Source: an uncultured Candidatus Saccharibacteria bacterium
GTDB taxonomy: Bacteria; Patescibacteriota; Saccharimonadia; Saccharimonadales; CAYLGV01
DNA length: 64,000 nucleotides
Assembly (NCBI GenBank): GCA_964383395.1
Contig: CAYLGV010000001.1
Coordinates: 4,031 to 68,030, forward strand
Reading direction: 5' to 3'
The first letter of the stretch is position 1, and every line of letters starts with the position of its first letter. Of this stretch, positions 1,296 to 27,859 are shown one piece after another. The position numbers were made by a program, and so were the translations under genes. The notes under the pieces were generated by a model. The model did no database searches. It had not been told where the DNA came from and worked only from the letters and a program-made list of their open reading frames with translations.

Positions 1296-1371
1296 GGCCC
1301 CGTCGTCTAGTGGTTAGGATATCTGGTTCTCATCCAGAAGATCGCGGGTTCGAATCCCGCCGGGGTCACCA
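1296..1371 (+). tRNA. tRNA-Glu (anticodon CUC), CCA encoded
   Basis: Hand-folded cloverleaf. Acceptor GGCCCCG pairs with CGGGGTC. Anticodon stem TCTGG/CCAGA carries loop TTCTCAT. T-arm is GCGGG-TTCGAAT-CCCGC, followed by discriminator A and CCA. Confidence 0.85.
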
Positions 1372-1378
1372 CGAAAAT

Positions 1379-1403
1379 AGCTCAGCGAAAGCTGGGCTTT
1401 TTT
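1379..1403 (+). terminator. Intrinsic terminator after tRNA-Glu
   Basis: Hairpin AGCTCAGC-gaaa-GCTGGGCT followed by a T run. Confidence 0.6.
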
Positions 1404-1410
1404 CGTGGTG

Positions 1411-1512
1411 GTTCTCTCGAGAACCGAACCCGCAGGGTTCGATCTTCGAGGACGCGCGCAGGTGCTCGCACCGAGCACGCCGCAAGAAGTAATCATCCCT
1501 CCAGGGTCACCA
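1411..1512. repeat. Repeat M1: ~77-nt core plus an 18-nt copy of the tRNA-Glu 3' end
   Basis: The sequence GTTCTCTCGAGAACCGAACCCGCAGGGTTCGATCTTC...GCAAGAAGTAATCATCCC recurs at 2674-2766 and, degenerate, at 6931-7008. Its tail ATCCCTCCAGGGTCACCA (1495-1512) matches tRNA-Glu 1354-1371 at 16 of 18 positions. Confidence 0.8.
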
Positions 1513-1527
1513 AGACGCTAATGCTTA

Positions 1528-1559
1528 AATACTTCTCTTTTGGAGAAGTATTTTTATTT
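1528..1559 (+). terminator. AT-rich hairpin with T tract just upstream of the nucleotidyltransferase gene
   Basis: AATACTTCTC-ttttg-GAGAAGTATT followed by TTTATTT. It could terminate an M1-containing transcript or act as a leader structure. It overlaps a possible -35/-10 pair (TTGGAG, 16-nt spacer, TAACAT, then 6 nt to ATG 1574). Confidence 0.45.
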
Positions 1560-1573
1560 GATAACATTTACAT

Positions 1574-2119
1574 ATGAACGAGACTGATACAAATAATCCC
1601 GAAAAACAAATGAGCTCACATGATGTCGTCTCTTTAATACAGCTTTGTGAAGAAAACGCTATCGAAGTCTATATAGATGGAGGCTGGGGTGTTGATGCAC
1701 TACTCGGCCAACAAACTCGCCAGCATGGTGACCTTGATATTGCTTTACCGCACAAACAAGTCCCTGTGTTACGTGCCCTGCTTGAAACAAGGGGTTATCG
1801 TGAAGTGCCACGTGATGATACGCGAGACTGCAACTTTGTCCTTGGTGATGACAATGGTCATGAAATTGATCTTCATTCATATACATTTGACGACCAAGGT
1901 AATAACGTATTTGGCGTAGCATATGAGCCGAGGCATTTAACTGGAACCGGCAGCATTAATGGTTACCCAGTAAAATGCATACCCGCAGATGTAATGATAG
2001 AGTTTCATCAAGGTTATGAAGTAGATGTCGATGATTACCATGACGTACGGGCTCTTTGCGATAAGTTTGGGTTTGAATTACCTGCCATTTACGAGAAGTT
2101 TGAAACGAAAGAGTTGTAA
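1574..2119 (+). CDS. Aminoglycoside-2''-adenylyltransferase (AadB/ANT(2'')) family nucleotidyltransferase
   Basis: 181-aa ORF. The N-terminal IDGGWGVDALLGQQTRQHGDLDIALP resembles the AadB signature GGGWAIDARLGRVTRKHDDIDL. The substrate cannot be read from the sequence. Confidence 0.7.
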   Translation: MNETDTNNPEKQMSSHDVVSLIQLCEENAIEVYIDGGWGVDALLGQQTRQHGDLDIALPHKQVPVLRALLETRGYREVPRDDTRDCNFVLGDDNGHEIDLHSYTFDDQGNNVFGVAYEPRHLTGTGSINGYPVKCIPADVMIEFHQGYEVDVDDYHDVRALCDKFGFELPAIYEKFETKEL

Positions 2120-2166
2120 ATAGCTAGGAAGAAAGCAAACGCCGCCACCGCAAAAACTCATCATAT

Positions 2167-2200
2167 ATGGGCGCTAAACTTTCAGGTGTTAGGTCACCAA
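2167..2200. repeat. 34-nt direct repeat, copy A (ATGGGCGCTAA...GTTAGGTCACCAA)
   Basis: 25 of 34 positions are identical to 2639-2672 by hand alignment. Its 3' end GGTCACCAA matches the tRNA-Glu and M1 tail. Confidence 0.6.
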
Positions 2201-2236
2201 TTGATTAACACATGTATTTATGTTATAGTTTGATTA
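2201..2236 (+). promoter_or_regulatory. Sigma70-type promoter placed for a leaderless transcript of the 2237 ORF
   Basis: TTGATT (2201-2206), 17-nt spacer, TATAGT (2224-2229), then 7 nt to ATG 2237. There is no Shine-Dalgarno sequence. Confidence 0.5.
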
Positions 2237-2557
2237 ATGAGTATACGAAAATCTGAATTTGTACCTGTTGTTCCTCCTGAGGAGCATCCTTACATGCATC
2301 ATCTTTATGCACGTACTGGGCTCGAATTAACGAGTGAAGCGGATGTAGTCTTGGCAGCCGCACACAGGAAGTGGAGCTCAGGATCAGAAGTTGAAGACCG
2401 CGTTGAAGTGGCAGAGTTACTATTAGGTCGAAGAATAGATGGTCAAGAGCTACATACTTTGCCAGTAGCATTTGGTTTACATATCTTCCATCCAGAAGAT
2501 TTTGACGGATTATTGAATATTGTTTCGCGAATTGCCGAAACTGAGCATGGTCAGTAA
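2237..2557 (+). CDS. Hypothetical protein (106 aa)
   Basis: ORF with a promoter-like signal directly upstream. Its N-terminal motif SEFVPVVPPEEHP resembles GFVPAIPPEEP in the 3431 ORF. Confidence 0.55.
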   Translation: MSIRKSEFVPVVPPEEHPYMHHLYARTGLELTSEADVVLAAAHRKWSSGSEVEDRVEVAELLLGRRIDGQELHTLPVAFGLHIFHPEDFDGLLNIVSRIAETEHGQ

Positions 2558-2638
2558 TTCCAGACAGTAAATGTCCTGTTTATAGCCACATTACAACTAG
2601 AATTTAGGATCTTTTGCCATCGTCTGAATTCACTGTAA

Positions 2639-2672
2639 ATGGGTGCTAATAATTCGTCGGTTAGGTCACTAA
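2639..2672. repeat. 34-nt direct repeat, copy B (ATGGGTGCTAA...GTTAGGTCACTAA)
   Basis: Matches 2167-2200. It abuts repeat M2. Confidence 0.6.
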
Positions 2673-2673
2673 A

Positions 2674-2766
2674 GTTCTCTACGAGAACCGAACCCGTAGG
2701 GTTCGATCTTCAAAAGCTCTCACAGGAGCTCCCTCCGAGAAAGCTTGCAGAAGTAATCATCCCGCC
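2674..2766. repeat. Repeat M2 (~93 nt)
   Basis: The 5' 37 nt are near-identical to M1 and the 3' end GCAGAAGTAATCATCCCGCC is shared. The central hairpin differs in sequence but still folds. Confidence 0.8.
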
Positions 2767-2774
2767 AAAAACGA

Positions 2775-2810
2775 TTGACACTAGCGCACTAGTATGCTAG
2801 TATATAGCCT
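2775..2810 (+). promoter_or_regulatory. Promoter of the trpR-like gene overlapped by three CTAG boxes (putative TrpR-family operator)
   Basis: TTGACA (2775-2780), 17-nt spacer, TAGTAT (2798-2803), then 7 nt to ATG 2811. CTAG starts at 2781, 2789 and 2797, an exact 8-bp phasing. Confidence 0.55.
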
Positions 2811-3062
2811 ATGTCAAACTTTAATGACGTAACCGATATTATCTACACCACTCGAGACAAAGGGCTGCTTGAGGACTTTCTTGTTGGTCTTACAACCGAC
2901 AAAGAACGTGCCGAACTGGCTCAACGAGTAGAAATCATTAAGCGATTAATTGCGGGTGAACCGCAAGCTAAAATCGCCAGTGATTTAGGAGTTGGTATTG
3001 CGACGGTTACTCGTGGCTCAAAGGCGTTGAGCCAAGGTCACTTTAAGGCTTTGAGGAAATAA
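2811..3062 (+). CDS. TrpR-related YerC/YecD family DNA-binding protein
   Basis: 83 aa. The segment EPQAKIASDLGVGIATVTRGSKAL is a TrpR-type helix-turn-helix. Size and layout fit the YerC/YecD family. Confidence 0.7.
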   Translation: MSNFNDVTDIIYTTRDKGLLEDFLVGLTTDKERAELAQRVEIIKRLIAGEPQAKIASDLGVGIATVTRGSKALSQGHFKALRK

Positions 3063-3064
3063 TA

Positions 3065-3133
3065 ATGACTAACTTACATATTAGGCAGCAGAACACTTGG
3101 TGGAACTCGCGTTATATATGGGAGTCTATTTGA
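3065..3133 (+). CDS. Trp-codon-rich leader peptide (trpL-like), 22 codons
   Basis: I read ATG ACT AAC TTA CAT ATT AGG CAG CAG AAC ACT TGG TGG AAC TCG CGT TAT ATA TGG GAG TCT ATT TGA. Tandem TGG codons lie at 3098-3103 and a third TGG at 3119-3121. GAGG (3053-3056) sits 8 nt upstream of the ATG. Confidence 0.7.
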   Translation: MTNLHIRQQNTWWNSRYIWESI

Positions 3134-3161
3134 CGTACTAAATTGTAAATAAGCAAATAAT

Positions 3162-3184
3162 CGCCTCCCATCTGGGAGGTTTTT
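3162..3184 (+). terminator. Attenuator terminator between the leader peptide and the trp structural genes
   Basis: Stem CCTCCC (3164-3169) pairs with GGGAGG (3174-3179), followed by TTTTT (3180-3184). The 5' arm can instead pair with ATGGGAG (3118-3124) inside the leader ORF. Confidence 0.7.
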
Positions 3185-3203
3185 AATATTAAGGAGAAAT
3201 ACT

Positions 3204-3434
3204 ATGAATGAACATTATGAACAAAGAGTGCCTGAGTACCGCCAGGCGTTTGAATCGATCTGCCAAGAATTTGGATCAGCGAAGGTCGTAGAACTACTGG
3301 TGGCCTGTTTTGGCGAAGAACCAACAGGATATGCCCTAGAAAAGCTTGGAGTAGCGGGCGTAATGCCTGGCATTCAACTCGTACACGTCTACGGAAGAAA
3401 TCGTAATTTTGAATATATAGGAGAACAATCATGA
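3204..3434 (+). CDS. Hypothetical protein (76 aa), first gene after the attenuator
   Basis: AAGGAG ribosome-binding site 8 nt upstream. Its stop overlaps the next start (ATGA). Confidence 0.6.
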   Translation: MNEHYEQRVPEYRQAFESICQEFGSAKVVELLVACFGEEPTGYALEKLGVAGVMPGIQLVHVYGRNRNFEYIGEQS

Positions 3435-3988
3435 GTGAAACAATGCAACCACGTAACGGAGATGAACGGAGAGACCGGATAATGGATATTCGAGAGCGTA
3501 AAGGTCACTTACTTGGACGAGGGATCATCGTGAGCAGCGGTAACCCTGGTTTCGTGCCAGCTATACCACCGGAGGAACCTCTGAAGTACAGCACACCTTA
3601 CATCGACAAAGATGGGAAACCTGCGTATAAGTATCGCGGCAAGCCAACTAGCTCTATTCGTACGCTACCAGCTGACCAAAGTGAATTTGTAAGGACAAGG
3701 AATAGGCATAGCGCTGAGGGGTGTGGGCGAACTGCTTTGAGCACTGCCGTAGAGCGTCAGCAAATAATGATTGCCGAGGACTTAGCTTACGAGCAACAGA
3801 CTAGTGAGGAGGCTCGAGCTAATCGACTTAATCGCTACTTAGAGCTTCTTGGAGACGGAACGGCTCTACTGGATGAGGCTGCTGTGGATGAGCTCAATGG
3901 CCTCGCTCATGAATTCCATATGCCACGTGACTATATAGAAGCGTGTCAGATTATGGATGCGGGAGGTGTGAGTTATGGCATCTGCTAA
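3431..3988 (+). CDS. Hypothetical protein (185 aa)
   Basis: Translationally coupled on both sides, with a 4-nt overlap upstream and a 14-nt overlap with trpB. I recognised no family. Confidence 0.6.
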   Translation: MSETMQPRNGDERRDRIMDIRERKGHLLGRGIIVSSGNPGFVPAIPPEEPLKYSTPYIDKDGKPAYKYRGKPTSSIRTLPADQSEFVRTRNRHSAEGCGRTALSTAVERQQIMIAEDLAYEQQTSEEARANRLNRYLELLGDGTALLDEAAVDELNGLAHEFHMPRDYIEACQIMDAGGVSYGIC

Positions 3989-5189
3989 CATGTTTTACGG
4001 CAAGTACGGGGGCCGTTATGTGCCCGAAATGCTTCAGCCAGCTTTGACTGAACTAGCTGAAGCATATGACAAGCTCAAGAAGGATCCTGATTTCCGAGCA
4101 GAGCTTAAGGAGTTACAAACCAAGTACAATAACCGCCCTACACCACTGGTACATGCCCAAAGCCTGACTGCTCAACTTGGTGGAGCGCAGATATACCTCA
4201 AGAACGAAGGTATGAATCATACAGGTGCACATAAGATTAACCATTGTCTTGGGCAGGCGCTTGTTGCCCGTAAATTGGATAAGAAGCGTCTTATCGCCGA
4301 GACTGGCGCTGGGCAGCATGGTGTGGCAACCGCCACAGTAGCAGCACGCCTGGGATTTGAGTGCACGATTTATATGGGCGCGCTTGATATGGACCGCCAG
4401 CGACCAAACGTACTCCTCATGGAATTACTGGGTGCTGAAGTCATTCCGGTTACTTTTGGTGCACGTACACTCAAAGATGCAGTCAGTGCTGCGATGAAAG
4501 ACTACCTGCAGAATTCAGACACGACACACTACGTGATTGGATCATGCCTCGGGCCTGATCCCTACCCGCGCATGAATCGTGATTTCCAAGCTATTATTGG
4601 TAAGGAGATACGACAGCAACTCGATAGAATACCAGATTACGTTGTTGCCTGTGTGGGCGGAGGTAGCAATGCACTTGGTGCTTTTACCGAGTTTTTGAAA
4701 GATCGAAATGTTACGCTTATTGGCGTTGAGGCTGGTGGTAAGGGCAAAAAACTTGGCGAGCATGCAACACGTTTCCCTGCGGCAAAATCAGGTATCGTGG
4801 AGGGCTACAAGTCGTACTTCTTGCAAGACGCAGATGGTAATACTGCCAAAACACATAGCATTGCTGCCGGGCTTGACTATATTGGGGTTGGCCCAGAGTT
4901 AGCTGCTCTACATGACCAGGGTCGAGTGGAGTTTACTCGAGCAAGTGACAAGGAAGCGCTCGCTGCTGTTAAGTTCCTAGCCCAGACTGAGGGCATTATT
5001 CCGGCTCTCGAATCTGCTCATGCTGTTGCTCACGCAATAAAGATTGCACCTAGACTACCGACAGACACGACTATAGTGGTTAATGTTTCTGGGCGTGGTG
5101 ATAAGGATTTGTTTACCCTTGCTCGTGCTTTCGATGCAAAAAACTTTTCTACATTCTTACAAAACGAGGTACAACACTATGAAAAATAA
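3975..5189 (+). CDS. trpB: Tryptophan synthase beta chain
   Basis: 404 aa. Contains GGRYVPE, NEGMNHTGAHKINH (PLP lysine region) and ETGAGQHGVATA. GGAGG lies 8 nt upstream. Confidence 0.92.
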   Translation: MASANMFYGKYGGRYVPEMLQPALTELAEAYDKLKKDPDFRAELKELQTKYNNRPTPLVHAQSLTAQLGGAQIYLKNEGMNHTGAHKINHCLGQALVARKLDKKRLIAETGAGQHGVATATVAARLGFECTIYMGALDMDRQRPNVLLMELLGAEVIPVTFGARTLKDAVSAAMKDYLQNSDTTHYVIGSCLGPDPYPRMNRDFQAIIGKEIRQQLDRIPDYVVACVGGGSNALGAFTEFLKDRNVTLIGVEAGGKGKKLGEHATRFPAAKSGIVEGYKSYFLQDADGNTAKTHSIAAGLDYIGVGPELAALHDQGRVEFTRASDKEALAAVKFLAQTEGIIPALESAHAVAHAIKIAPRLPTDTTIVVNVSGRGDKDLFTLARAFDAKNFSTFLQNEVQHYEK

Positions 5190-5934
5190 GATCATGACAC
5201 ATGTTGTGGCGGGTTACCCAAACCTAGAGGATTGCTTGGCTTTAATGCTAGAAATGCAAGATGCGGGTGTTCATGCGATTGAGGTGCAGATCCCTTTCAC
5301 TGACCCAATAGCAGACGGTGAAACAATCATGAAGGCCAACGATATTGCATTGACTAATGGCGTGACAATAGAAAGTTGTTTCGGGCTCATTCTGGCTGCC
5401 CGCAATGCAGGCTTAATGGTGCCGATCTACATCATGAGTTATGTGCACAAAGTGGCACATGTGGGCTTTCAAGAGTTTTGCGAGCAAGCAAAACAATGTC
5501 AGGCTGATGGTCTGATCATTCCTGACCTCCCTGCTAGCATGCCGGAGTTTAAGGCGTTGTTAAAACAGTGTGCTCAGTTCAAACTTGACCTGGTTCCTGT
5601 ACTATCGCCCGGCATGGCTGATGCCAGGCTTAAAGCGTACAAGTCGCAGTCTACGGACTTTGTGTACGTTACAAGCGGCAGAGGTATTACGGGAAATAAG
5701 CTGGCGCTTGACCCAGAGCTTACGCAGCTCGTTGAACACGTACGATCGGAGATATTATGTGATGTCGCGTTGGGTTTTGGTATCCAGAGTCAACTTGATG
5801 TTAAGAAAGCACTTGAAATTGCTGATATCGCAGTCGTTGGCAGCGCAGTTATTCGTGAGATTGAGCAGCGTGGAGTCAAAGGTGCTGCTGCATTTGTAAA
5901 ACAACTAATTAAGAAAACAGATCATGACAACTAA
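5179..5934 (+). CDS. trpA: Tryptophan synthase alpha chain
   Basis: The track ORF starts at 5083, but GAGG plus ATG 5179 overlapping the trpB stop gives MKNKIMTHVVAGYPNLED...IEVQIPFTDPIADGETI, which is TrpA-like. Confidence 0.85.
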   Translation: MKNKIMTHVVAGYPNLEDCLALMLEMQDAGVHAIEVQIPFTDPIADGETIMKANDIALTNGVTIESCFGLILAARNAGLMVPIYIMSYVHKVAHVGFQEFCEQAKQCQADGLIIPDLPASMPEFKALLKQCAQFKLDLVPVLSPGMADARLKAYKSQSTDFVYVTSGRGITGNKLALDPELTQLVEHVRSEILCDVALGFGIQSQLDVKKALEIADIAVVGSAVIREIEQRGVKGAAAFVKQLIKKTDHDN

Positions 5935-6925
5935 AAAACGAATTCTAACAGGTGATCGGCCAACAGGAAAACTGCACCTTGGGCACTATCTCGGTACATT
6001 AGAAAACCGGGTACGGCTTCAAGATGAGTATGAGACCTACATAATGGTGGCAGATGTTCAGGCACTGACAGACAACTTTGACAACCCTAAAAAGGTTCGT
6101 GAGAGTGTCTATGAGGTTGCACTTGATAACTTGGCTGTGGGGCTTGATCCTCAAAAGTCAGTTTTGTTTGTGCAGTCCCAGGTACCGGAACTGACTGAGT
6201 TAACGGTGTACTTCATGAACCTCATTAGTCTTGAGCGATTGCAACGCAACCCAACGGTTAAAGCAGAGATGAAGCAGAAAGGTTATGGTGGTAACGTTCC
6301 GGTAGGATTCGTGAACTATCCCCTGTCACAGACGGCTGATATCTTGGCCTTTAATGCTGATCTTGTTCCTGCTGGCAACGATCAGGCGCCTATGTTGGAA
6401 CTGAGTCGCGAGATTGTTGCGAAGTTTAAGAACATTTACGGCTATACCTTCCGGATGCCTGAGATTGTAGTCGGTCGAGTAGCCCGCCTGGTTGGTACTG
6501 ACGGCAATGCAAAGATGAGTAAGAGCCTCGGTAATGTGATCTACTTGTCAGATCCCGAGGAGGTTGTAACTAAGAAAGTAATGGCAATGTACACCGATCC
6601 AAGCCGAAAACATGCAACCGATCCAGGCAAAGTTGATGGCAACCCAGTCTTCATATACCTGGATGCTTTCGGTAAAGACATATCAATTATTGATGAGTTG
6701 AAGCAACGCTATGCTGCTGGCACGGTTGGTGATGTTGAGGTAAAACAGTACTTGGCAGCGGTTCTCAACGAGTTCCTGGGCCCTATTCGTGAACGACGCC
6801 ATTACTATGAAGCGCGACCCGAACTTGTTGCAGAAATTCTAAGAGAAGGAACGCTTAAGGCGAGAAGTACGGTAGCCAAGACAATGCAGGATGTTCACAG
6901 TGCAATGCAGCTCTATCAGTTTTAG
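5924..6925 (+). CDS. trpS: Tryptophanyl-tRNA synthetase
   Basis: 333 aa class I aaRS. HIGH-type motif KLHLGHYLG and KMSKS are present. Overlaps the trpA end by 11 nt. Confidence 0.92.
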   Translation: MTTKKRILTGDRPTGKLHLGHYLGTLENRVRLQDEYETYIMVADVQALTDNFDNPKKVRESVYEVALDNLAVGLDPQKSVLFVQSQVPELTELTVYFMNLISLERLQRNPTVKAEMKQKGYGGNVPVGFVNYPLSQTADILAFNADLVPAGNDQAPMLELSREIVAKFKNIYGYTFRMPEIVVGRVARLVGTDGNAKMSKSLGNVIYLSDPEEVVTKKVMAMYTDPSRKHATDPGKVDGNPVFIYLDAFGKDISIIDELKQRYAAGTVGDVEVKQYLAAVLNEFLGPIRERRHYYEARPELVAEILREGTLKARSTVAKTMQDVHSAMQLYQF

Positions 6926-6930
6926 ACAAG

Positions 6931-7008
6931 AGGGGTCCCGATTCACCCGCAAGGCTTGGAGCAGATCTACTCACACTAAAATCATCCGCAAGAAGTTATT
7001 ATCGCCCA
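6931..7008. repeat. Repeat M3, a degenerate and shorter copy of M1/M2
   Basis: CACCCGCAAGG...GATCT...CCGCAAGAAGTTATTATCGCCC aligns with ACCCGCAGGGTTCGATCT...CCGCAAGAAGTAATCATCCCTCC of M1, including an 11-nt exact CCGCAAGAAGT. Confidence 0.5.
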
Positions 7009-7024
7009 GCCACAACTCAACTAA

Positions 7025-7061
7025 TTGACCAAACACCCATTTAGTTGTATTGTAACCAAAT
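7025..7061 (+). promoter_or_regulatory. Promoter with a very short or absent leader for the 7062 ORF
   Basis: TTGACC, 17-nt spacer, TATTGT, then 8 nt to ATG. Confidence 0.45.
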
Positions 7062-7586
7062 ATGGCAGACGTGGAAAAATCACCGCTTGTGTTCCCCTTT
7101 GAAGCTCAATATGTTGACGCAGCACTTGCTATGGGCAGAGAGGATCAAGAACGGCTAAGAAAAGAAGAAGTTTCATGGTTACAGGAAAATAGTTCCTACC
7201 TCTACGCTCTCTTCTGTGGAGATTTTGCTAAGGTTATAGAGTTATCTGGCATAGATACAGGCAATGCATATTGGGCAGGTCGAGCCATGGGTAACCGGGC
7301 AATCCGACTCTTCTTGGATGATCACACCGAGCTTGACTATGAAGCGTTGGCGACACAGTATCGTGCAAATGTTGAAGTAGACAATAGGCGTCTAGGTGAT
7401 CGTGAGAATCCCACACGTGTAGTTCCCTGGAAGTCGCATGAGATCTTGACCGACTTGTTTGGTGACGAGAGAATTGCAGGAGCACTCACAAAAGTACGCC
7501 ATGAAACGGCACGCGAAACTGCTGCAATCACCATCGCCTTCTATTGTCTCTCGGATATCCCTGAATCTGCCTACGCTAACGTATAA
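7062..7586 (+). CDS. Hypothetical protein (174 aa)
   Basis: Long ORF with a promoter signal upstream. No recognisable motif. Confidence 0.6.
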   Translation: MADVEKSPLVFPFEAQYVDAALAMGREDQERLRKEEVSWLQENSSYLYALFCGDFAKVIELSGIDTGNAYWAGRAMGNRAIRLFLDDHTELDYEALATQYRANVEVDNRRLGDRENPTRVVPWKSHEILTDLFGDERIAGALTKVRHETARETAAITIAFYCLSDIPESAYANV

Positions 7587-7596
7587 TGTGAGCGAA

Positions 7597-8118
7597 ATGC
7601 CTGCTCCAATCTACACAATCAACCTCCCACAATATCAGGTAGAAACTGAACCTGACGATGAAGCAATTGGTGCTGTTATTGATGCAGAAATTAAAAAGCA
7701 CTTTTTGGGTAAATCAATTCTGATAAGAGGTGTGGCTTCAAGCGAACATCCCACCAAGACACGGGACGAGCTAGTAGAAATAATTACTAGTAATGGGACA
7801 GATCGATATGATCCGAATCGTGCCGGTGATCGTTATGAAAATGTTGAAGGCAAGCAGATTGATCTATTTGCTTTTCACTACAAAGTAGAAGCCGCAACTA
7901 AGCTTACGCAACCGCTCATTTGGGGTTTTTATCACAGCTCTCTTGGTATTCATGGTAAGCCGATGAGAATCGATGTCATCACTATCTACGATGTCGAACA
8001 AATGAACCAAATTACTCACCGTTACGAAGGCCGCGATGATGTTAAAGATGATGGCTTCACTTTCAGGTATCCCCAGAATAAGCTCGATGCTTTACAGGCA
8101 GTATTTGTACTCAACTAA
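7597..8118 (+). CDS. Hypothetical protein (173 aa)
   Basis: The track ORF begins at 7459 and overlaps the previous gene. ATG 7597 (MPAPIYTINLP...) is in the same frame and lies just after the upstream stop. Confidence 0.55.
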   Translation: MPAPIYTINLPQYQVETEPDDEAIGAVIDAEIKKHFLGKSILIRGVASSEHPTKTRDELVEIITSNGTDRYDPNRAGDRYENVEGKQIDLFAFHYKVEAATKLTQPLIWGFYHSSLGIHGKPMRIDVITIYDVEQMNQITHRYEGRDDVKDDGFTFRYPQNKLDALQAVFVLN

Positions 8119-8132
8119 CTATTCAGAGAAAA

Positions 8133-8834
8133 CTATTTCCTCAACTGATATACTTCGCCTGTTGCAACTACGTTATGTTTGTTAATGAGTGCCTTCAGTA
8201 GCTTAATAATAGCAGCCGTCTTCTGTGTCCCAACTGCCTCATTTGCTTCAATATAGAGGTTTGCCCAGTGGTTATCAATTGTTTGTAGATTAGCTTCAAC
8301 TTGTCTCGGTTTTGCCATCCAGCGTTGCTTTAATTTATAAAAACTCTCAATGGCGGTCACCAGAGCTCCATTTTGAAGATAGTAGCCAGGGACAGAAAGC
8401 TCTCCGAGTGACTCTAGATCGTCAATAAGAGTGCGTATAACATATCCAAGTATTGCAAGGGCCTCATCATCAAGCTTTGGAGGCCCAGCTGTATATATTT
8501 GCTGTGCTTTAGATTGGACGTCAGCTAAGCGCCCATGTGAGTCAAACACGATAGTTCCTGTAGCGAGCATATTCAATGCTGGATTTGAAATCTTTGAGGT
8601 GACAAGTTCATTCTCGTTAATGCTTGCGAGCGTATTGCAAAATGTCTCAATATGAGTGTTCCCATGTATCCAGGTTCTTCGGAATGATTTTGACTCATTG
8701 CTTAGTAATACATAGAAATCCCAGTCGCTTGTGGTTGTTGCAGAACCTTGTTGGCGGCTACCGGTATACAAAATACCATCACAGCCTTCGATTGCCTTCA
8801 CTTTATTGAGAATATCGTTTGGAATGTCTTGCAT
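8133..8834 (-). CDS. Nucleotidyltransferase-fold protein (KNTase/ANT-like architecture)
   Basis: GSRQQGSATTTSDWDFYVLL fits the GS...DxD minimal NTase motif, followed by a helical C-terminal domain. The start is set at the internal Met (MQDIPNDIL). Confidence 0.55.
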   Translation of the reverse strand: MQDIPNDILNKVKAIEGCDGILYTGSRQQGSATTTSDWDFYVLLSNESKSFRRTWIHGNTHIETFCNTLASINENELVTSKISNPALNMLATGTIVFDSHGRLADVQSKAQQIYTAGPPKLDDEALAILGYVIRTLIDDLESLGELSVPGYYLQNGALVTAIESFYKLKQRWMAKPRQVEANLQTIDNHWANLYIEANEAVGTQKTAAIIKLLKALINKHNVVATGEVYQLRK

Positions 8835-8978
8835 AACGTCATTGTAACAGATCGAAGTCTGTTCCTCTGAAGGGACAATTAAGGCAGCCAGGGTGGGTTT
8901 GTGATCACGGACCAGGCCGATGATAAGTATCAAAAACGATGGCTACGAAAGACAGATGATGTACATGTAATTGAGTAT

Positions 8979-9860
8979 CTAGCGACTGTAAGGTTCGATT
9001 TCGGCTTGAGCACCTGCTCGAGTGATCTTACCCTGCTCGTCAATCCTAGAAATTAACTCACTTGCCTTGCCCATGTCGCCTTTTATAGCGGCATTTTCGG
9101 CACGGTACTGTAGCCAATAATCAACTTCATCGTGAGCCGTGACTTTTGTGGTTTTGCCCTCATCGTCTATTGTTTCAACAAGTACTAAAGCTTCGTCAAA
9201 GTCGCTTTTTTCTGCTTTAGATTTGGCACCATAACTAACCCAATACTCAACTTCGTCGCGTGCAGCAACCGTTTCTTCTTCAGTTGCACCTGCTAGGTGG
9301 TCAACGATGTCGTAAGCGGCACCGAAATCTTTCTCGTCCTTTGCCAAGTTTTCTGCGGTAAAAGCTTGCCAGTATCGCGCATCACTGCCGTAGGCTGCTT
9401 TAGTTTGAGGGTTTGAAATAGAGTTCAACAATGTATTTGAAGTGGAGATTTCACCGGCAAAGGCAGCACATGTAGCCTTTAAGCCTGCCTGAGCACCCTC
9501 TGGATCAGCGAGAAATTCATCAGGATGTACTAGAATGCCCTTTTCGGTGTCAGTGCCTATCTGGCGTTTGATGCTCTCATATTGGAGCTTGGCGCCTGCA
9601 AGATCGTTGTTAATAGCAAGCTTTTGGGCGTAGTCTTCAGCATCTGCTAGTTTCTCGGCTTCAGTTTTAGGTTGGGTCGTAGTTGATGGATCGTAGATGA
9701 GACCTAGATCACCCACTAGCATGCCACAATCTTTTGAGGTAATGTCTTCGGGAGCTATGGTGTCACGGGCATGCATTGGGGCTTGCTCGCCAATGCCACA
9801 GGCCGAACCACCTACCAAAATTGCACCTGTCATAGCTAAACCACGTAATACGTTTCCCAT
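8979..9860 (-). CDS. Lipoprotein with degenerate ~40-aa repeats
   Basis: MGNVLRGLAMTGAILVGGSAC forms a lipobox. The C-terminal half repeats DEVEYWVSYGAK... and DEVDYWLQYRAEN... Confidence 0.6.
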   Translation of the reverse strand: MGNVLRGLAMTGAILVGGSACGIGEQAPMHARDTIAPEDITSKDCGMLVGDLGLIYDPSTTTQPKTEAEKLADAEDYAQKLAINNDLAGAKLQYESIKRQIGTDTEKGILVHPDEFLADPEGAQAGLKATCAAFAGEISTSNTLLNSISNPQTKAAYGSDARYWQAFTAENLAKDEKDFGAAYDIVDHLAGATEEETVAARDEVEYWVSYGAKSKAEKSDFDEALVLVETIDDEGKTTKVTAHDEVDYWLQYRAENAAIKGDMGKASELISRIDEQGKITRAGAQAEIEPYSR

Positions 9861-9947
9861 ACATCTCCCAAAAACCTTAATTATTCGATATATTATACAT
9901 TTATTACAACAAAAAGTCAACTATATCCTGATCGCAGCGTAGTCTTA

Positions 9948-10613
9948 CTACTCATCAAGCATACGAATATACTTCAAAACCCGCTTCGGTCTTAGGATCG
10001 TCTCATCGACAACTGTTCCAGCATGGGCGAAGTGTTTCGGTTCAATAAGGATAAACTTCTTATGTTTCTTGGCTTCCTCGCGAACATCCTCGACATCAAC
10101 CAGCTGATCTTTGAGGGGAAAAACCATGACCATTGACGCGTGATCAAGCGAGCCTGGATTGCTATACATATTCACTGGCTTCCAGATTTCTGCCAATTCA
10201 TCATAGCTCTGGGGCCACTGTTCTTTCGTAGAAAGCCGCAAGACAGCTTTGACGATATCTCCACCAGTTATAAACACTGCCCTATTGAACCGCGTATCTC
10301 GCCGTACTATGTTTAACGCAATGAGGCCGCCAAGGCTAAATCCAATAACAAGCACAGGTTGATTTACTCCTTCCTGATATGCGACTGCTAAGTTATAAAC
10401 CTCGTCTATAAGTCCAGGCAACATTGAGGGGTCCCCGGTCGAGAGCGTCTCAGCAGTATGATCAACGACTTTTACGGCGTAGCCGTCACGCATAAGTGTG
10501 CGTATCAAGCGTTTTGTTTGCCAAACCTTGCCGCCATGACCACAGATAACCAGCACATACTTAGGATTAGGCTTATCGAAACCATAGTCTTTCACGGTTG
10601 TTACGTATTTCAT
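9948..10613 (-). CDS. Alpha/beta hydrolase
   Basis: GFSLGG nucleophile elbow. The 221-aa size and motif order are typical. Confidence 0.6.
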   Translation of the reverse strand: MKYVTTVKDYGFDKPNPKYVLVICGHGGKVWQTKRLIRTLMRDGYAVKVVDHTAETLSTGDPSMLPGLIDEVYNLAVAYQEGVNQPVLVIGFSLGGLIALNIVRRDTRFNRAVFITGGDIVKAVLRLSTKEQWPQSYDELAEIWKPVNMYSNPGSLDHASMVMVFPLKDQLVDVEDVREEAKKHKKFILIEPKHFAHAGTVVDETILRPKRVLKYIRMLDE

Positions 10614-10698
10614 TAGAGAGAAGTATACCCCATCCCCTCAAGTGCTTGTGCTTGCCTTTTTATAACAGAGGCGTATAAGTAAAGTAAAAGGAGATGTT

Positions 10699-11421
10699 AT
10701 GCCTGGATTATCACATGAACAATATGATGAAAAAGTTATGGGCTTGGCGGCAACCTACGAAGCGCTGAGTGGTTTAGATTTAATGCCTGAGGCTTTGACG
10801 GGTGGCGAGGTTGATAACAGCGTAATATACGGCTACTACGGGAAAATTTACGAGACCGACACCTTTCATCATGACTTGACGCGTGGTGTTCGTGCAGGGC
10901 TGGATAAACTGAAGTTTGATGTAGGCTGCTGGGGTCGTTTTGCACACGACAGCAGTACATTTATTGACGAGGCCGACGAAGATAAAAGACTTGAAATGTC
11001 AGGAATTCTAGCAATGATGACTGCTCCTCGTGATCAAGAACAGTTCGACTCCTTAGCTCTGCAAATATTTGAACTTTTTGACAAAGTGACTAAGGGCGAA
11101 CCAGTTGTTGTTGAGCGTCCTGGAAAAAAACGCTTCATTGATGGTGACTGGCGACCAGATGTCCAGCAAGTGGGTGAACACAACGGTAAGCTTCAAGTCA
11201 TCTTTGATAACGGTCATGTCGCCGATAGAGCAATCAGTATTTGGTCGGATCGCCCAGAAAGAATTCACTCCGAAGAACCGAACGCTCGAGGCGGCCATCC
11301 CCAGGTGGTTTTCCCATTGCTTGTCGTAGATCTCGAAGCTTTGGCTCTCGGTGCTGTTAGGATTTCTTACCCAGACCACCTGCCCCAAGCTACAGAGCCA
11401 GAAGCTCAGCCTGTTTCTTAG
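10699..11421 (+). CDS. Hypothetical protein (240 aa)
   Basis: AAGGAG ribosome-binding site upstream. No family recognised. Confidence 0.6.
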   Translation: MPGLSHEQYDEKVMGLAATYEALSGLDLMPEALTGGEVDNSVIYGYYGKIYETDTFHHDLTRGVRAGLDKLKFDVGCWGRFAHDSSTFIDEADEDKRLEMSGILAMMTAPRDQEQFDSLALQIFELFDKVTKGEPVVVERPGKKRFIDGDWRPDVQQVGEHNGKLQVIFDNGHVADRAISIWSDRPERIHSEEPNARGGHPQVVFPLLVVDLEALALGAVRISYPDHLPQATEPEAQPVS

Positions 11422-11481
11422 TAAGCTATCTTTTCAGATGTGATTACTCTCAGATCGAGTTAAGAGCGTTATACTATAGCT

Positions 11482-12150
11482 ATGCTTGATCACCACCTAC
11501 AACGTGCCATTGTCTACCGATTAGCGTTATCCCATGAGCTACGCTTCAGTGAACTTAAGCCCGACACGGTCGACAACAAGTTATTTACCTATCACCTTCA
11601 CAAAGTTGAGTCGGCAGGCTATGTTCATAAAAATGAGGCTGGTCTCTATTCCCTGACTCCTGAGGGTCGTCGGCTTGGTATACGCGTACTCTACAACCAA
11701 GGTGCCTTTCAGGATCAGGCTGACTCAGTCCTGTTTTTGGTAATTCGCCGTAAATCAGATGGTGCCTGGCTGCTTTACAAGCGCAGTGCTCATCCATTGA
11801 TTGATCGTGTGGGCTTTATGCATGCCCCACCTTGGTCAAACCAGACAACCTCTGAAGCGGCACAAACCTATTGCAAACGTGTTACGGGCCTAGACGGTGA
11901 GTTCACGCCTCTGGGCGGTGGATACTTTCGGGTTTATAGCGACGAAAACATCGAGAGTTTTACGCATTTTACTCTTATGGTGTGTGAAGACATAACGGGC
12001 GAGCTTGATCAAAGTGACAAGCACGCCGGTTATTTCTGGAGTACTGAGCCAGACTTTTCGGCTAAGGAAATGATTCCTAACTCTCAGATCTTAGCTGATC
12101 TATATCTGGCTGGTAAGCCCTTCTTTATTGAGCAAACTTTTAATCTTTAA
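11482..12150 (+). CDS. Winged-helix DNA-binding protein with a degenerate NUDIX-like C-terminal domain
   Basis: The N-terminus ...RFSELKPDTVDNKLFTYHLHKVESAGYVHK is wHTH-like. TATACT lies 6 nt before the ATG. Confidence 0.45.
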   Translation: MLDHHLQRAIVYRLALSHELRFSELKPDTVDNKLFTYHLHKVESAGYVHKNEAGLYSLTPEGRRLGIRVLYNQGAFQDQADSVLFLVIRRKSDGAWLLYKRSAHPLIDRVGFMHAPPWSNQTTSEAAQTYCKRVTGLDGEFTPLGGGYFRVYSDENIESFTHFTLMVCEDITGELDQSDKHAGYFWSTEPDFSAKEMIPNSQILADLYLAGKPFFIEQTFNL

Positions 12151-12908
12151 GCAGCGAGTTGTAGGTCAACTGCTGTTTCGTAAGCCCTTACGGCATCAGT
12201 CGGTGCTTCGCGGCGCCAAAATACTGATAGATGACTATCTGGGTCGGCTAGCTGGGCAATTGATGGTGGTAAGCCAATAGTATCACCCAGGGTTCGAGCA
12301 TCGTTGAGCGCTCTTAGACTATGTTCTCGCACCAGTATCTGTGTATCCACACTGCTTAACGGTTGCTCAATCAACTTATCACCGAGGTCAACACAGGCTA
12401 ATGTAAGTGAAGCTTTCCCGATTTTACGTCCAAGGGTTCGCTTATGCCTTTCTACTCGCGGAGAATATGTTTCTATAGCATTCTTTAGCTGTTCGGCAGT
12501 AGCTCTGGCATCTCCGAATCTAAACGCTGCTTCGTCGAGAATATCGCTTGAACATTCCTGATAGGCGGGGTTTTGGATTGCAAGATACGGCAGCTTGAGG
12601 CGGCGGCGCATCACTTCAAACTCGGCGCCACGAGCAAACCCATACCATGCAGAGTTTAGGCCGCTGGCGGCAATAATCCGTGATGAGAAGCCGACACCCT
12701 CTGGTTCTTTCACGAACCTCAGAATGGTTGAGGCGACGGCTAGGCCGCGCTCTTGGTGTTCTGCAAGCAGGACGCCTTGTGGTAATTGGCGGCGGCGTTC
12801 TATTTCCTCCTCATCACGCGCTTTTGCCGGCACAAAGTGTCGTCCATCCAGATGCTTAGTTGGTAAATCGAAATCCTTGTATATGCGTTCTTTTTCCATG
12901 CTAGGCAT
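12147..12908 (-). CDS. Hypothetical protein (253 aa)
   Basis: Long ORF, with a 4-nt convergent overlap with the preceding plus-strand gene. Confidence 0.55.
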   Translation of the reverse strand: MPSMEKERIYKDFDLPTKHLDGRHFVPAKARDEEEIERRRQLPQGVLLAEHQERGLAVASTILRFVKEPEGVGFSSRIIAASGLNSAWYGFARGAEFEVMRRRLKLPYLAIQNPAYQECSSDILDEAAFRFGDARATAEQLKNAIETYSPRVERHKRTLGRKIGKASLTLACVDLGDKLIEQPLSSVDTQILVREHSLRALNDARTLGDTIGLPPSIAQLADPDSHLSVFWRREAPTDAVRAYETAVDLQLAA

Positions 12909-12968
12909 TCTGGGCCAGACCTAGCATGATTGCAGTGAAGACATTTTCACTCACCTATGCGGCGTAGG

Positions 12969-14288
12969 TTATGGATGTATGACGACTTGGGGCAGCTCGG
13001 CGAGGTTCGTAGTGTAGCGCGGACTACGCTGGTTATAAATGGGGCGCCATTGCTGCCCCAGGGCTTGGGTAGCAAAACGGATAGTGTGTTTGCCATAGGT
13101 TTCGTTAAGTGTATCTATGCTGACCATGCGGGCTCGGGCTCGGTCGTGGTCTTTCGGGTTGGCTTCGTTTAAGAGATCGAGCTGCAGATCGCCGGCTGGC
13201 AGAAAGTCGTATAGCATGACACCAGCACGGTGGTAGGACTGGTTGGGGTGGTAGAGCTGATTAAGCTCCTTTACCAAGGTGTGAATAAGATGGCCTGTAT
13301 CGGCCGTCGGAACACGGTAGGTAATTTCTTTGAACCACCGTCGGTAGCCTGGCTTGAATCGGTTATTGGTTAAAAATAGGGCTGCTCGTTTAGTTACCTG
13401 TCCACTGGTGCGCAGTCGAAAGGCGGCTTGGGTGGCAAAGGTGGCGATAGCGGCTTCCAGAGAGTCAAGATCGTTGGTATCGTGCCCAAAGGTGCGAGTG
13501 CGAGCGATACTTTTACGTATCTTCCCTTCACGATCGAGCGGATAGCAGGATAAGCCGTTCAACTCAGCTATTAGTTGTCGGCCACGGATACCCATGAGCT
13601 GCTGGGCATGTTTAGGCTGCAACTGGGCAAGCTGTTGGGCATTTGTGATGCCTTCGGCGCGCATTTTGGGCGCAAAGCGCCAGCCAATCCCCCATACGTC
13701 TTGAACGGGGACTGCCTCTAGGTGATGACGAGTGACCTGAGCTGACTCACTATAAAGGTTTAATACGCCCCCAAGTTCGGGGTCTTTTTTGGCTCGCTCA
13801 CTAGCTAACTTGGCCAATGTTTTGGTAGGCGCGATGCCAATTGAAACAGGTATACCAACCCATTTCCAAACAGCTTCACGTACTTGCTCTCCCCAGGCGG
13901 CATAGTCTTCGATGCGGAGTTCCTGTAAATCTAGGAATGATTCGTCTACAGAGTAGACCTCAATTCGTGGTGTTACGGATGTGAGTAGTTCGGTGATGCG
14001 GCGTGAAATGTCTCCGTAGAGGTCAAAATTGGCGCTAAACTGCACAACGCCGTGTTGCTTGAAAATCTCACGGTACTTGAAGGCTGGAGCGCCCATAGGT
14101 ACACCAAGCGCTTTAACTTCATTACTGCGGGCGACTGCACAGCCGTCATTGCTGCTTAATACGACCACAGGGGTTGTTAGTAGGTCTGGCCGGAAAACGC
14201 GCTCACAGCTTACGAAGAAGTTATTGCAGTCAATGAGCGCAAAAATCGGTGGTCTTTTTGCAGCTGAGTCATTGGAATTCGTTGACAC
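12969..14288 (-). CDS. umuC: Y-family translesion DNA polymerase (UmuC-like)
   Basis: IFALIDCNNFFVSCERVFRPDL...VVVLSSNDGCAVARSNEVKALGV and YSVDESFLDL retain the catalytic acidic residues. Confidence 0.88.
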   Translation of the reverse strand: MSTNSNDSAAKRPPIFALIDCNNFFVSCERVFRPDLLTTPVVVLSSNDGCAVARSNEVKALGVPMGAPAFKYREIFKQHGVVQFSANFDLYGDISRRITELLTSVTPRIEVYSVDESFLDLQELRIEDYAAWGEQVREAVWKWVGIPVSIGIAPTKTLAKLASERAKKDPELGGVLNLYSESAQVTRHHLEAVPVQDVWGIGWRFAPKMRAEGITNAQQLAQLQPKHAQQLMGIRGRQLIAELNGLSCYPLDREGKIRKSIARTRTFGHDTNDLDSLEAAIATFATQAAFRLRTSGQVTKRAALFLTNNRFKPGYRRWFKEITYRVPTADTGHLIHTLVKELNQLYHPNQSYHRAGVMLYDFLPAGDLQLDLLNEANPKDHDRARARMVSIDTLNETYGKHTIRFATQALGQQWRPIYNQRSPRYTTNLAELPQVVIHP

Positions 14289-27409: not shown

Positions 27410-27859
27410 CTAGTTAAGGTTGTTCTTGGTGAAGGTGCCACCACCTTCGAGCGTTGCGGTCAATGTGTACGTTGTACATGTAGTGTCATCAGACTCACAT
27501 GAAGCGTTTGAGGCATTTGTAACGGCATATGAATATGTCGTTGATCCAGGTGAGGTTGCAATTGTGTAACCAGAACCCTTCGGATCCTTGAGAGCTTCTT
27601 GGTCAAGACCCTTCATATTAGTACTGCGCCATGAGCTGTCATTAAGATCACCAGATGATGGGTAATAACCCTTCTGGGCGTAGAATGCTTCTACCTGGCC
27701 ATGGAGAGCCTTGATATCTGTTGTGCGCTCGGTGTTACGAGCTTTTTGTTGAATACCTGTGAAAGTAGTGATTACTAACGCGGCCAAAATACCGATCACC
27801 ACAATAACGATCAAGAGTTCCACGATTGTGAAACCTTGCTGCTTAGCTTTACTGGTCAT
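27410..27859 (-). CDS. Type IV pilin (prepilin-type N-terminal cleavage/methylation domain), copy 1
   Basis: QQGFTIVELLIVIVVIGILAAL. Confidence 0.88.
   Translation of the reverse strand: MTSKAKQQGFTIVELLIVIVVIGILAALVITTFTGIQQKARNTERTTDIKALHGQVEAFYAQKGYYPSSGDLNDSSWRSTNMKGLDQEALKDPKGSGYTIATSPGSTTYSYAVTNASNASCESDDTTCTTYTLTATLEGGGTFTKNNLN

Follow-up and report, generated by a model that had tools for sequence, protein, structure and literature searches.

Several described systems bear on gene gain at tRNA genes. In the tycheposon model of Prochlorococcus, elements integrate at a tRNA gene, later arrivals displace earlier ones, partial tRNAs and degraded elements pile up, and most of the resulting islands are without an integrase (bioRxiv 10.1101/2020.12.28.424599, which also cites the tRNA sublocation classes of Williams 2002). 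For large serine recombinases (LSRs), the half-sites of the attachment (att) sites attP and attB differ in that a motif is displaced 5 bp outward (Rutherford et al. 2013, PMC3783163). Here we analyse a stretch of 64,000 nucleotides (hereafter the window) from an uncultured Candidatus Saccharibacteria bacterium (assembly GCA_964383395.1, contig CAYLGV010000001.1), in which a tRNA-Glu(CTC) gene is followed by strain-variable DNA containing two copies, M1 and M2, of a structured repeat that we call M. Our preferred interpretation, to which we give a probability of about 0.6, is that positions 1372 to 12968 form an additive island seeded by the tRNA gene and built by recombinases that were later lost, M being part of the attachment site of a non-autonomous family. 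The fit of the architecture to the established model, in which a tRNA gene seeds an additive island, is, taken by itself, highly probable. The original prediction, made from the letters of this DNA, had not recognised a known type of element here; the overall architecture is nevertheless that of a tRNA-seeded additive island (bioRxiv 10.1101/2020.12.28.424599). Feature coordinates are collected in Table 1.

The tRNA-Glu(CTC) gene, one of three tRNA genes in the window (ARAGORN, Rfam RF00005), is the seed and the attachment target of the island. Its terminator has an extended stem (approximately 1365-1410) in which, as read off the sequence, CACCACGAAAA pairs with TTTTCGTGGTG. This intact gene borders the island with its 3′ side, and the DNA is variable from position 1372 onward. 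Comparison with the related locus L005 defined its limits. The side carrying the tRNA-Glu gene and a histidine kinase gene (76% identical) is common to L005 and the window, and the other flank of L005 corresponds to the window from the Y-family polymerase gene (12969) onward. Between these flanks lie 11.6 kb in the window and 3.9 kb in L005, with zero genes in common by tblastx. Homologues of the histidine kinase, which is encoded upstream, assign the window to Saccharimonadales/Patescibacteria, going by their source names. The L005 segment that follows tRNA-Glu consists of its own M copy, then one gene, then a copy of a second repeat, N, and other content again was found at the same tRNA in L006 and L017. 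Inside the island of the window, partial tRNA-Glu 3′ ends are present in direct orientation: the tail of M1 (16/18 matches), that of M2 (8/8 plus 8/10) and the two N copies, N1 and N2, both of which finish in GGTCAC(C/T)AA.

Recombinase genes are found at the same tRNA in relatives. LSR genes adjoin tRNA-Glu in L006, L017/L018 and L024; in L006 (kinase 80% identical) and L017/L018 (76%) the LSR gene converges on the tRNA-Glu 3′ end, and in L025 and L027 a recombinase open reading frame (ORF) overlaps tRNA-Glu 3′-end sequence at the contig edge. The tRNA-Pro and tRNA-Leu genes are likewise abutted by recombinase genes in contigs with homologues of the nucleotidyltransferase described below. More distant relatives were found to have neither M nor such LSR elements. 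In the window itself, no Phage_integrase, Resolvase or Recombinase domain was detected among the approximately 40 ORFs tested, in agreement with the original statement that no integrase is present. The original idea of serial site-specific insertion at a tRNA gene, by a recombinase now gone from the window, thus holds in its core, the island being variable and relatives having an LSR gene at the site; the synteny comparison that had been suggested at tRNA-Glu, with conserved flanks and entirely different intervening genes in L005, points the same way.

A feature of the gene calls deserves mention. Several LSR ORFs (L006, 3790-5520; L017, 2-643; L031, 7404-8852; L029, 7713-9722) were called through the antisense of the adjacent tRNA, and unrelated recombinases thereby have the C-terminus GDPGGIRTRDLLDENQIS in common; this is either an ORF-calling artefact or an attachment site overlapping the end of the gene. 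When the window was searched by tblastn with recombinase and Replic_Relax proteins, the sole match was this tRNA antisense stretch. The idea that N might be a relic of the 3′ end of a recombinase gene was dropped, as these searches hit only the tRNA-antisense GDPGGIRTRDLLDENQIS, a likely artefact of ORF calling.

On the interpretation that we prefer, site-specific recombinases targeting the 3′ part of tRNA-Glu would repeatedly have inserted small elements, every insertion restoring the tRNA and pushing the earlier 3′ end downstream. The recombinase genes would have been lost later, and the cargo would have remained between partial tRNA ends: a lincosamide/aminoglycoside-type nucleotidyltransferase gene, an ORF of 106 aa, and a module for tryptophan salvage with TrpRS.

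The evidence that M belongs to this process begins with its 3′ end. The tRNA tail ATCCCGCCGGGGTCACCA (1354-1371) is repeated as ATCCCTCCAGGGTCACCA at the end of M1, with 16 matches out of 18, as the original prediction had stated, and the same tail-copy relation was found at five loci with other tRNAs. By calculation, at least 16/18 matches are expected by chance at approximately 2e-8 per site, or approximately 0.003 over both strands of the window, so that the similarity is better than chance. M1 and M2 are a true repeat, as had also been proposed: they share 79% identity across 86 nt, and a 29-mer common to both has exactly two occurrences in the window (0.00 expected). A covariance model run on the window found nothing above tRNA-level noise beyond these two copies. 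The isolated 8- and 9-mer halves of the tail that had been listed are indeed present, but individually they are not significant, and they gain meaning only from homologous position. This is the case for ATCCCGCC (2759-2766), which occupies the same place in M2 as the start of the tail does in M1.

M had first been described as a plain repeat with a tRNA-like end. Its sequence shows instead the 3′ half of a pseudo-tRNA whose T-loop carries an insert of 52 nt after position 58. Its parts are, in order, the T-stem 5′ region in inverted copy, the T-stem 5′ strand with TTCGA, a conserved 52-nt bulged hairpin, ATCC with the T-stem 3′ strand, the acceptor 3′ strand, and CCA. In M1, the 5′ arm and the first two loop bases of hairpin 2, CGAACCCGC (1425-1433), are the reverse complement of GCGGGTTCG in the tRNA, and the T-stem 5′ region recurs, inverted, upstream in every M copy. 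M was not recognised as a tRNA by ARAGORN or by Rfam RF00005. No Rfam family matched M or N, either at the gathering threshold or up to an E value of 10, and phage and plasmid collections gave no match to M1. The M family, with its pseudo-tRNA carrying an insert in the T-loop, is the new part of this locus; M could be a component of an attachment site, a tRNA-like RNA or a selfish miniature insert.

One observation concerns the assembly of M1. An identical Logan contig, L004 (SRR13208889), has its position 1 at window position 1450, and therefore breaks inside M1, just past the conserved 5′ block. M1 and M2 have no 31-mer in common there. The break may reflect a further M copy elsewhere in that genome, or low coverage.

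M occurs next to other tRNA genes as well. A metagenome scan, with a pattern built from blocks common to M1, M2 and the L005 copy, returned nine stretches. Seven of them are real and amount to five distinct further copies, namely L008 (identical to L011), the near-identical twins L009 and L010, which were counted together, L012, L013 and L015. The parent tRNA is tRNA-Asp for L008/L011, L010 and L013, and tRNA-Tyr for L012 and L015; the L005 copy follows tRNA-Glu, as in the window. Each copy lies on the same strand as its tRNA, directly past the terminator, so that the order tRNA, terminator, M is seen at all loci of the family (for L009, a short contig without the full tRNA gene, the placement is taken from L010). 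Two further stretches from the pattern scan, L007 and L014, and one from a viral scan, L016, were rejected: their spacing is wrong or their context is coding, the conserved interior is missing, and they look like chance. A pattern for hairpin 2 gave three chance matches in unrelated phyla among genome contigs, and none in viral contigs.

Each M copies the T-arm and the acceptor 3′ strand of its own neighbouring tRNA. The insert is flanked by CCTTCGTAGGTTCGA and ATCCTACACCCTGCACCA in L012, and by ATCGCCGGTTCGA and ATCCGGTCGAGCCCGCCA in L013. The tails match 18/18 in these two, as they do in L009/L010 when compared with the part of the tRNA end that L010 contains. TTCGA and ATCC are always separated by 52 nt, made of TCTTCGAGGACGCGCACAG, a variable palindromic tip and CGAGCACGCCGCAAGAAGTAAnC; the blocks adjoining the T-loop, TTCGATCTTC and GAAGTAANCATCC, owe their invariance in part to the search pattern. 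Wherever the neighbourhood could be compared, M lies at the tRNA-proximal edge of strain-variable DNA. The homology between L012 and L015, for instance, breaks off immediately past the M tail (...CACCAA) and picks up again at the following tRNA, the cargo between these points being different, and in L015 two pseudo-ends are stacked after tRNA-Tyr.

These data bear on the explanation that M and N might be dispersed repeats resembling repetitive extragenic palindromes, or similar by chance, and have nothing to do with the boundaries of insertions. The isolated 8- and 9-mers, each within chance, would fit it, and so would M3, which is not significant. This third copy, originally placed at 6931-7008 as a degenerate M and as the far boundary of the trp module, did not withstand closer analysis. 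Its alignment to M1 covers just 24 nt, CCGCAAGAAGT.AT.ATC.C-CCAG, with a score of 28 against a background maximum of 24, and it went undetected by the covariance model (filters off, E up to 10) and by nhmmer (E up to 100); at best it is a decayed relic. All the same, only two M matches were found in 64 kb, both within the island, and approximately 200 kb of related loci has only tRNA-adjacent ones, every member outside the window adjoining a tRNA gene. The identity of the tails goes far beyond chance and tracks that of the neighbouring tRNA, and breakpoints of homology fall at M, both in the window (2775, 8 nt past the M2 tail) and where L012 and L015 diverge. A dispersed repeat, named originally as a possible refutation, is contradicted by this distribution, and we regard such an origin as barely credible.

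The insert of M is a maintained structure. A structure derived by hand was tested on eight sequences: 94.7% of the cells were paired, versus 33-49% when the partners were slid, and ten pairs had changed on both sides, values that were reached by 0 of 500 shuffles. RNAalifold recovered the same helices independently. Eight of the ten pairs changed on both sides belong to stems 3 and 4, within the insert; covariation in stem 1 and the T-stem is inherited from the differing parent tRNAs, and the informative signal is that within the insert. M2 and the L005 copy are heavily substituted yet re-paired (G-C to U-A at pairs 29-53 and 31-51; AAGCT/AGCTT versus GCCCG/CGGGC), and the tip hairpin, although different in almost every copy, is still paired. 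Since the stem is upheld by compensatory changes, the 52-nt hairpin does not appear to be a passive scar. Wobbles on the tRNA strand, that is U-G at pair 32-50 in L013 and GGTGAT/ATCGTC (L008) for GGCGAT/ATCGCC (L013), are a hint of RNA, or of that strand as single-stranded DNA. With their flanks, M1 and M2 fold better than shuffles (z of -3.1 and -3.7), and the minus strand folds equally well.

Such a structure could also belong to a functional tRNA-like small RNA, co-transcribed with the parent tRNA or made just after it, with the T-loop pentanucleotide UUCGA, an acceptor-like end in CCA, and an arm for binding protein or RNA after position 58; gene conversion would keep its flanks the same as the adjacent tRNA, and the position at the border of the island would be incidental. 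T-loop motifs tolerate insertions after A58, which is the insertion point in M. An RNA of this kind would account for the conserved asymmetric internal loops and covarying stems of the insert, for the confinement of G-U wobbles to the tRNA strand in L013 and in L008 compared to L013, and for the better folding of M1 and M2; moreover, a terminator directly follows 4 of the 8 copies, and L013 retains the tRNA-Asp 5′ acceptor heptamer GCTCGTG. Against this, the gap from the tRNA terminator to M is too short for a promoter, the tRNA models of ARAGORN and Rfam miss M and no Rfam family matches it up to an E of 10, the stem of M2 was kept although its 3′ end is gone, the minus strand folds as well as the plus strand, and the inverted T-stem 5′ copy competes with formation of the T-arm. 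We consider this explanation rather unlikely.

A third explanation takes the 52-nt hairpin for a selfish miniature insertion into TTCGA^ATCC of T-loops, surviving only in dispensable pseudo-tRNA ends that ordinary integrations left behind, M having no role in the building of islands. The insertion point and the length of 52 nt are the same in 8 of 8 copies and three tRNA types, in surroundings that are locus-specific; by our own count M1 is nearer to the family consensus (approximately 87%) than to the L005 copy at the same site (approximately 65%); the perfect 18/18 tails of L012, L013 and L009/L010 suggest recent events; and a different insert, of 88 nt, was found in the T-loop region of a pseudo-tRNA-Pro in L034/L035. 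On the other hand, there are no terminal inverted repeats beyond CTTC/GAAG, no target duplication, no associated transposase or homing enzyme, and no copy found outside a T-loop context. The compensatory upkeep of the stem in the diverged M2 and L005 copies would be unexpected for a dead insertion, and the inverted T-stem copy upstream in every M is left unexplained. A selfish insert therefore seems improbable to us.

Several further observations concern M or structures that resemble it. In the twins, an 11-nt block upstream of the inverted T-stem copy differs (L009, 355-375, versus L010, 1875-1895: ACGGCAGGGTA versus TAGAACGAATG), and the L009 version lengthens the complementarity to the tail to approximately 16 bp. 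In L034 (approximately 5040-5260) and L035 (approximately 2140-2360, minus strand), a pseudo-tRNA-Pro is made of GAGGTCACAGG, an 88-nt insert with multiple hairpins, and GAGTCCTGTAACCCCGACCA, the latter being an exact tail of 20 nt; the architecture is like that of M, and the insert is unrelated. This insert splits the T-arm of the pseudo-tRNA-Pro in the T-loop region, with its TTC displaced. In L013 (140-1523), a 1.3-kb insert after tRNA-Arg(CCT) holds a Fic/DOC gene alone, with no recombinase, and lies between two exact direct copies of a 26-nt stretch from the tRNA-Arg end, AGGTTCGAATCCTGGCGAGGGCACCA; it looks like a recent integrase-less integration of a single gene at a T-loop-type site. 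In view of these parallels in L013, L015 and L034/L035, small cassettes with tRNA ends, and split pseudo-T-arms holding structured inserts, are a general feature of such genomes.

We favour M as the attachment-site end of a non-autonomous family of elements, probably mobilised in trans, whose 52-nt hairpin would be a maintained cis-acting structure, because M tails act as junctions for two cargo units, the nucleotidyltransferase unit and the trp module; the tail of M presumably serves, or served, as an attachment site. The first of these units appears to start in the tail of M1 and has a direct repeat of 9 nt, GGTCACCAA, at its two ends (1505-1513 and 2192-2200); a hairpin with a T-run lies inside it (1527-1553). 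Its single gene encodes an ANT(2″)/Lnu-type nucleotidyltransferase, as originally called; the calls of Trp-repressor-like, TrpB, TrpA and TrpS genes were also correct. This cargo is mobile. Homologues of 65-77% identity are spread across many phyla, and in the Saccharibacteria-like contigs L031-L036 the gene lies inside compact recombinase elements abutting tRNA-Pro. In L029/L030, it is alone between tRNA-Gly and tRNA-Cys, beside an element with recombinase, Replic_Relax and coupling-protein genes at tRNA-Leu.

The 106-aa ORF is bracketed by N1 and N2, 25/34 identical, as the original prediction had described. The pattern of N has two sites in the window, with 0 expected, and the third copy is that of L005. 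At the site of the ORF, an 87-aa gene was called on contig L004. The distance from GGG to GGTCACCA is 20 nt in N, versus 15 nt in tRNA-Glu, and the outer motif common to both, GGGnnCnAA, is short. A bona fide element at tRNA-Pro (L031-L036) has the same geometry. Its far end, defined by flanks that differ between contigs right after it, reads CACAGGTTCG-TTTACAGTATCTGTATTG-CGACCA, with an 18-nt spacer, and tRNA-Pro itself reads CACAGGTTCG-AGTCCTGTAACCC-CGACCA, with a 13-nt spacer, so that the two agree in the outer motif and in the last six bases and the offset is +5. Because this offset matches both the attP/attB rule and the tRNA-Pro element, we interpret all three copies, N1, N2 and that of L005, as attR-type scars; N is thus a probable attR-type junction, at which the half-site of an element meets the final 8 or 9 nt of the tRNA. 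The GGTCACTAA upstream of M2, originally taken for the split-off 3′ half of the 18-mer of M2, is really the tail of a separate unit, N2. The tRNA-Pro element is flanked by a 9-nt direct repeat, CGACCAGTA, and served as a positive control for the palindromy of reconstituted attP sites: it scored 13/26, versus 12/26 for the nucleotidyltransferase unit, a weak palindrome (uncorrected p of approximately 0.02), and two other units were not significant.

The second cargo, the trp module, was found whole in L024-L027, beside Replic_Relax and an LSR gene abutting tRNA-Glu(TTC). At the nucleotide level, homology with L024 (70%) and with L028 (85%) sets in exactly at window position 2775, which is the -35 box and lies 8 nt past the truncated tail of M2, and the left-hand context is different in all three genomes. 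The module had been described as bounded by M2 and M3. It rather seems to sit inside the pseudo-acceptor tail of M2, because GGGGTCCCGA, directly after trpS, completes the ATCCCGCC of M2: positions 2759-2766 joined to 6932-6941 give ATCCCGCCGGGGTCCCGA, which matches 16/18 with the tRNA tail and 16/18 with the M tail of L005. At least 8/10 matches within 20 offsets have a calculated p of approximately 0.01. The module is self-contained, with its own promoter, and has none of trpE, D, C and F, which suggests indole-to-tryptophan salvage with TrpRS travelling along. It also has a hairpin with a T-run (3163-3180), and the 185-aa protein has a handful of homologues in all. In L024 (7400-13600), the other side of the module carries hisG, a histidinol-phosphate aminotransferase-like gene, hisD and a Pycsar-like pair (PycTM plus cyclase). 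A search for the far end of the L024 element by way of copies of the tRNA tail gave only a 13-mer inside a coding region, probably by chance.

Table 1. Features of the tRNA-Glu locus, in window coordinates
Feature	Position	Strand	Basis
tRNA-Glu(CTC)	1296-1371	+	ARAGORN; Rfam tRNA model, 66 bits; intact, CCA encoded
Whole strain-variable island, from tRNA-Glu to the Y-family polymerase gene	1372-12968	.	tblastx versus L005
Terminator hairpin of tRNA-Glu	1379-1398	+	terminator scan
M1, pseudo-tRNA-Glu 3′ half	1411-1512	+	covariance model, 101 bits; structure counts
M1 hairpin 1	1411-1424	+	
M1 hairpin 2	1425-1441	+	
M1 TTCGA	1438-1442	+	
M1 52-nt insert	1443-1494	+	
M1 tail ATCCCTCCAGGGTCACCA	1495-1512	+	16/18 versus tRNA tail
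Putative single-gene nucleotidyltransferase unit	1505-2200	+	9-nt direct repeats, terminator scan
ANT(2″)/Lnu-type nucleotidyltransferase gene, 181 aa, cargo	1574-2119	+	PF10706, E 1.7e-28
N1, P-type mimic of tRNA-Glu 3′ half; probable LSR attR scar	2167-2200	+	pattern, +5 spacing
106-aa ORF, no family match, between N1 and N2	2237-2557	+	
N2, second N copy, 25/34 identical to N1	2639-2672	+	pattern
M2, second pseudo-tRNA-Glu 3′ half	2674-2766	+	covariance model, 84 bits; compensatory pairs
M2 TTCGA	2702-2706	+	
M2 52-nt insert, stem re-paired as AAGCT/AGCTT	2707-2758	+	
M2 tail, cut after ATCCCGCC	2759-2766	+	
trp module	2775-6925	+	Pfam; promoter scan
trp module promoter	2775-2803	+	
Trp-repressor-like gene	2811-3062	+	
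76-aa ORF of trp module	3204-3434	+	
185-aa ORF of trp module	3431-3988	+	
trpB	3975-5189	+	
trpA	5179-5934	+	
trpS	5924-6925	+	
GGGGTCCCGA, putative displaced remainder of M2 tail, directly after trpS	6932-6941	+	sequence
M3, candidate decayed third M copy	6942-7008	+	24-nt local alignment alone
Y-family polymerase gene, conserved flank	12969-14288	minus	tblastx versus L005

A number of points weigh against the island as we interpret it. There is no recombinase within the 64-kb window, and neither a circular or excised form nor an empty M site was seen. The segment from tRNA to M, approximately 40-130 nt, holds only the terminator, and a decayed full element cannot explain all eight copies. 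Only the 52 nt are conserved across the Asp, Tyr and Glu types, which means that they move alone or are under a selection of their own. The junctions of the trp module have no recognisable half-sites, its orientation is opposite to that of the L024 copy, and the attP palindrome is significant for one of three cassettes, and not after correction. Finally, M lacks the attB/attP geometry of LSRs, with 52 nt between the T-stem with TTCGA and the ATCC with the acceptor strand. Such a length between the presumed motifs for the zinc-ribbon domain and the recombinase domain should spoil LSR binding, and M therefore misfits.

Three features elsewhere in the window were noted. A 300-nt direct repeat of 87% identity (27410-27709 and 28027-28326) overlaps adjacent minus-strand ORFs of 149 and 177 aa, which are probably tandem paralogues. 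A motif of 20-24 nt, (G)TnTCATnnCnTTATCATAnCAAA, has four or five intergenic copies before minus-strand genes (36904, 49321, 50789, 58640 and 60964) and may be a promoter or operator. Close to one another, at 38903-42733, are genes for a phytoene/squalene synthase, a CrtI-like amine oxidase and a UbiA prenyltransferase; such a carotenoid-type cluster would not be expected in a Patescibacterium with a reduced genome.

For Saccharibacteria, whose genomes are tiny and which need a host, the locus described here would provide a concrete route for gene gain in reduced genomes, in which tRNA genes are the seeds, and tRNA-targeting LSR elements together with very small cassettes are the carriers. Going by family membership, the nucleotidyltransferase could aid an epibiont living among antibiotic producers, and the trp module could give salvage of indole to tryptophan, with TrpRS. 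The M family offers a compact, conserved and structured element at the junction of tRNA and variable DNA. If it is a true component of a recombination site, or a tRNA-like RNA, it would give a new handle on site-specific gene capture, and could help the engineering of these hard-to-manipulate bacteria.

Compared to known systems, the locus is closest to additive islands. Like them, it starts at the 3′ side of a full tRNA gene, direct partial copies separate the acquisitions, the content is strain-variable between fixed flanks, recombinase elements are transient, and the cargo is of the niche-adaptation kind. It differs in that LSRs are found at the site in relatives, as opposed to the tyrosine recombinases typical of tycheposons, and in that the units are very small, 0.5-4 kb, often with one gene; the structured 52-nt T-loop insert and the inverted T-stem copy of M are unmentioned in bioRxiv 10.1101/2020.12.28.424599. 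Resemblances to the att sites of LSRs are an outer motif and crossover-proximal bases that N and the far end of the tRNA-Pro element have in common with the tRNA, set apart by 5 extra bases, the 9-nt flanking direct repeats, and, for tRNA-Pro, a quasi-palindromic attP (13/26). In contrast, M has 52 extra bases instead of 5, the window is without a recombinase gene, and the half-site symmetry of the cassettes is weak.

The likeness to IS200/IS605 TnpB omega RNA and Cas12 CRISPR RNA is purely formal. In M as in these, a scaffold is followed by a 3′ segment of 18-20 nt identical to a target, here the tRNA 3′ end; TTCGA precedes this segment in the tRNA, and in M the 52-nt insert parts the two, as a transposon does between an adjacent motif and a guide target. 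However, the window ORFs tested gave no TnpA, TnpB, IscB or Cas protein, the scaffold of M is far shorter, and its insert has a single hairpin, with no pairs of left and right ends. Other candidates were dropped: a K-turn or loop-E motif, an archaeal bulge-helix-bulge intron and the GTTC targeting of IS91 gave no match, Tn7-like ends were rejected as there are no TGT...ACA termini, and a duplication of the casposon type was not seen.

The last comparison is with integron attC sites and the attP(+) of CTX-phi. There are no IntI or Xer genes nearby and no attI, the anchor is a tRNA gene, the attC cores RYYYAAC/GTTRRRY are absent, M reading GTTCGAT, and no tyrosine recombinase was detected in the tested ORFs. 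Shared with these systems are the arrays of small cassettes, often of a single gene (toxin-antitoxin, nucleotidyltransferases, NUDIX), a bulged hairpin that is conserved over and above its sequence, and an inverted copy of half of the target that can fold into a target-mimicking duplex. A further possibility, speculative and distinctly unlikely, is that M-type sites are a new class of structure-dependent attachment sites that mimic tRNA: the inverted T-stem copy and the 52-nt hairpin would fold as single-stranded DNA or RNA and present, or guide to, the tRNA 3′ end, for the capture of integrase-less single-gene cassettes in naturally competent, genome-reduced bacteria. M would then be the counterpart, anchored at a tRNA gene, of the attC sites of integrons or of homing by a guide RNA.

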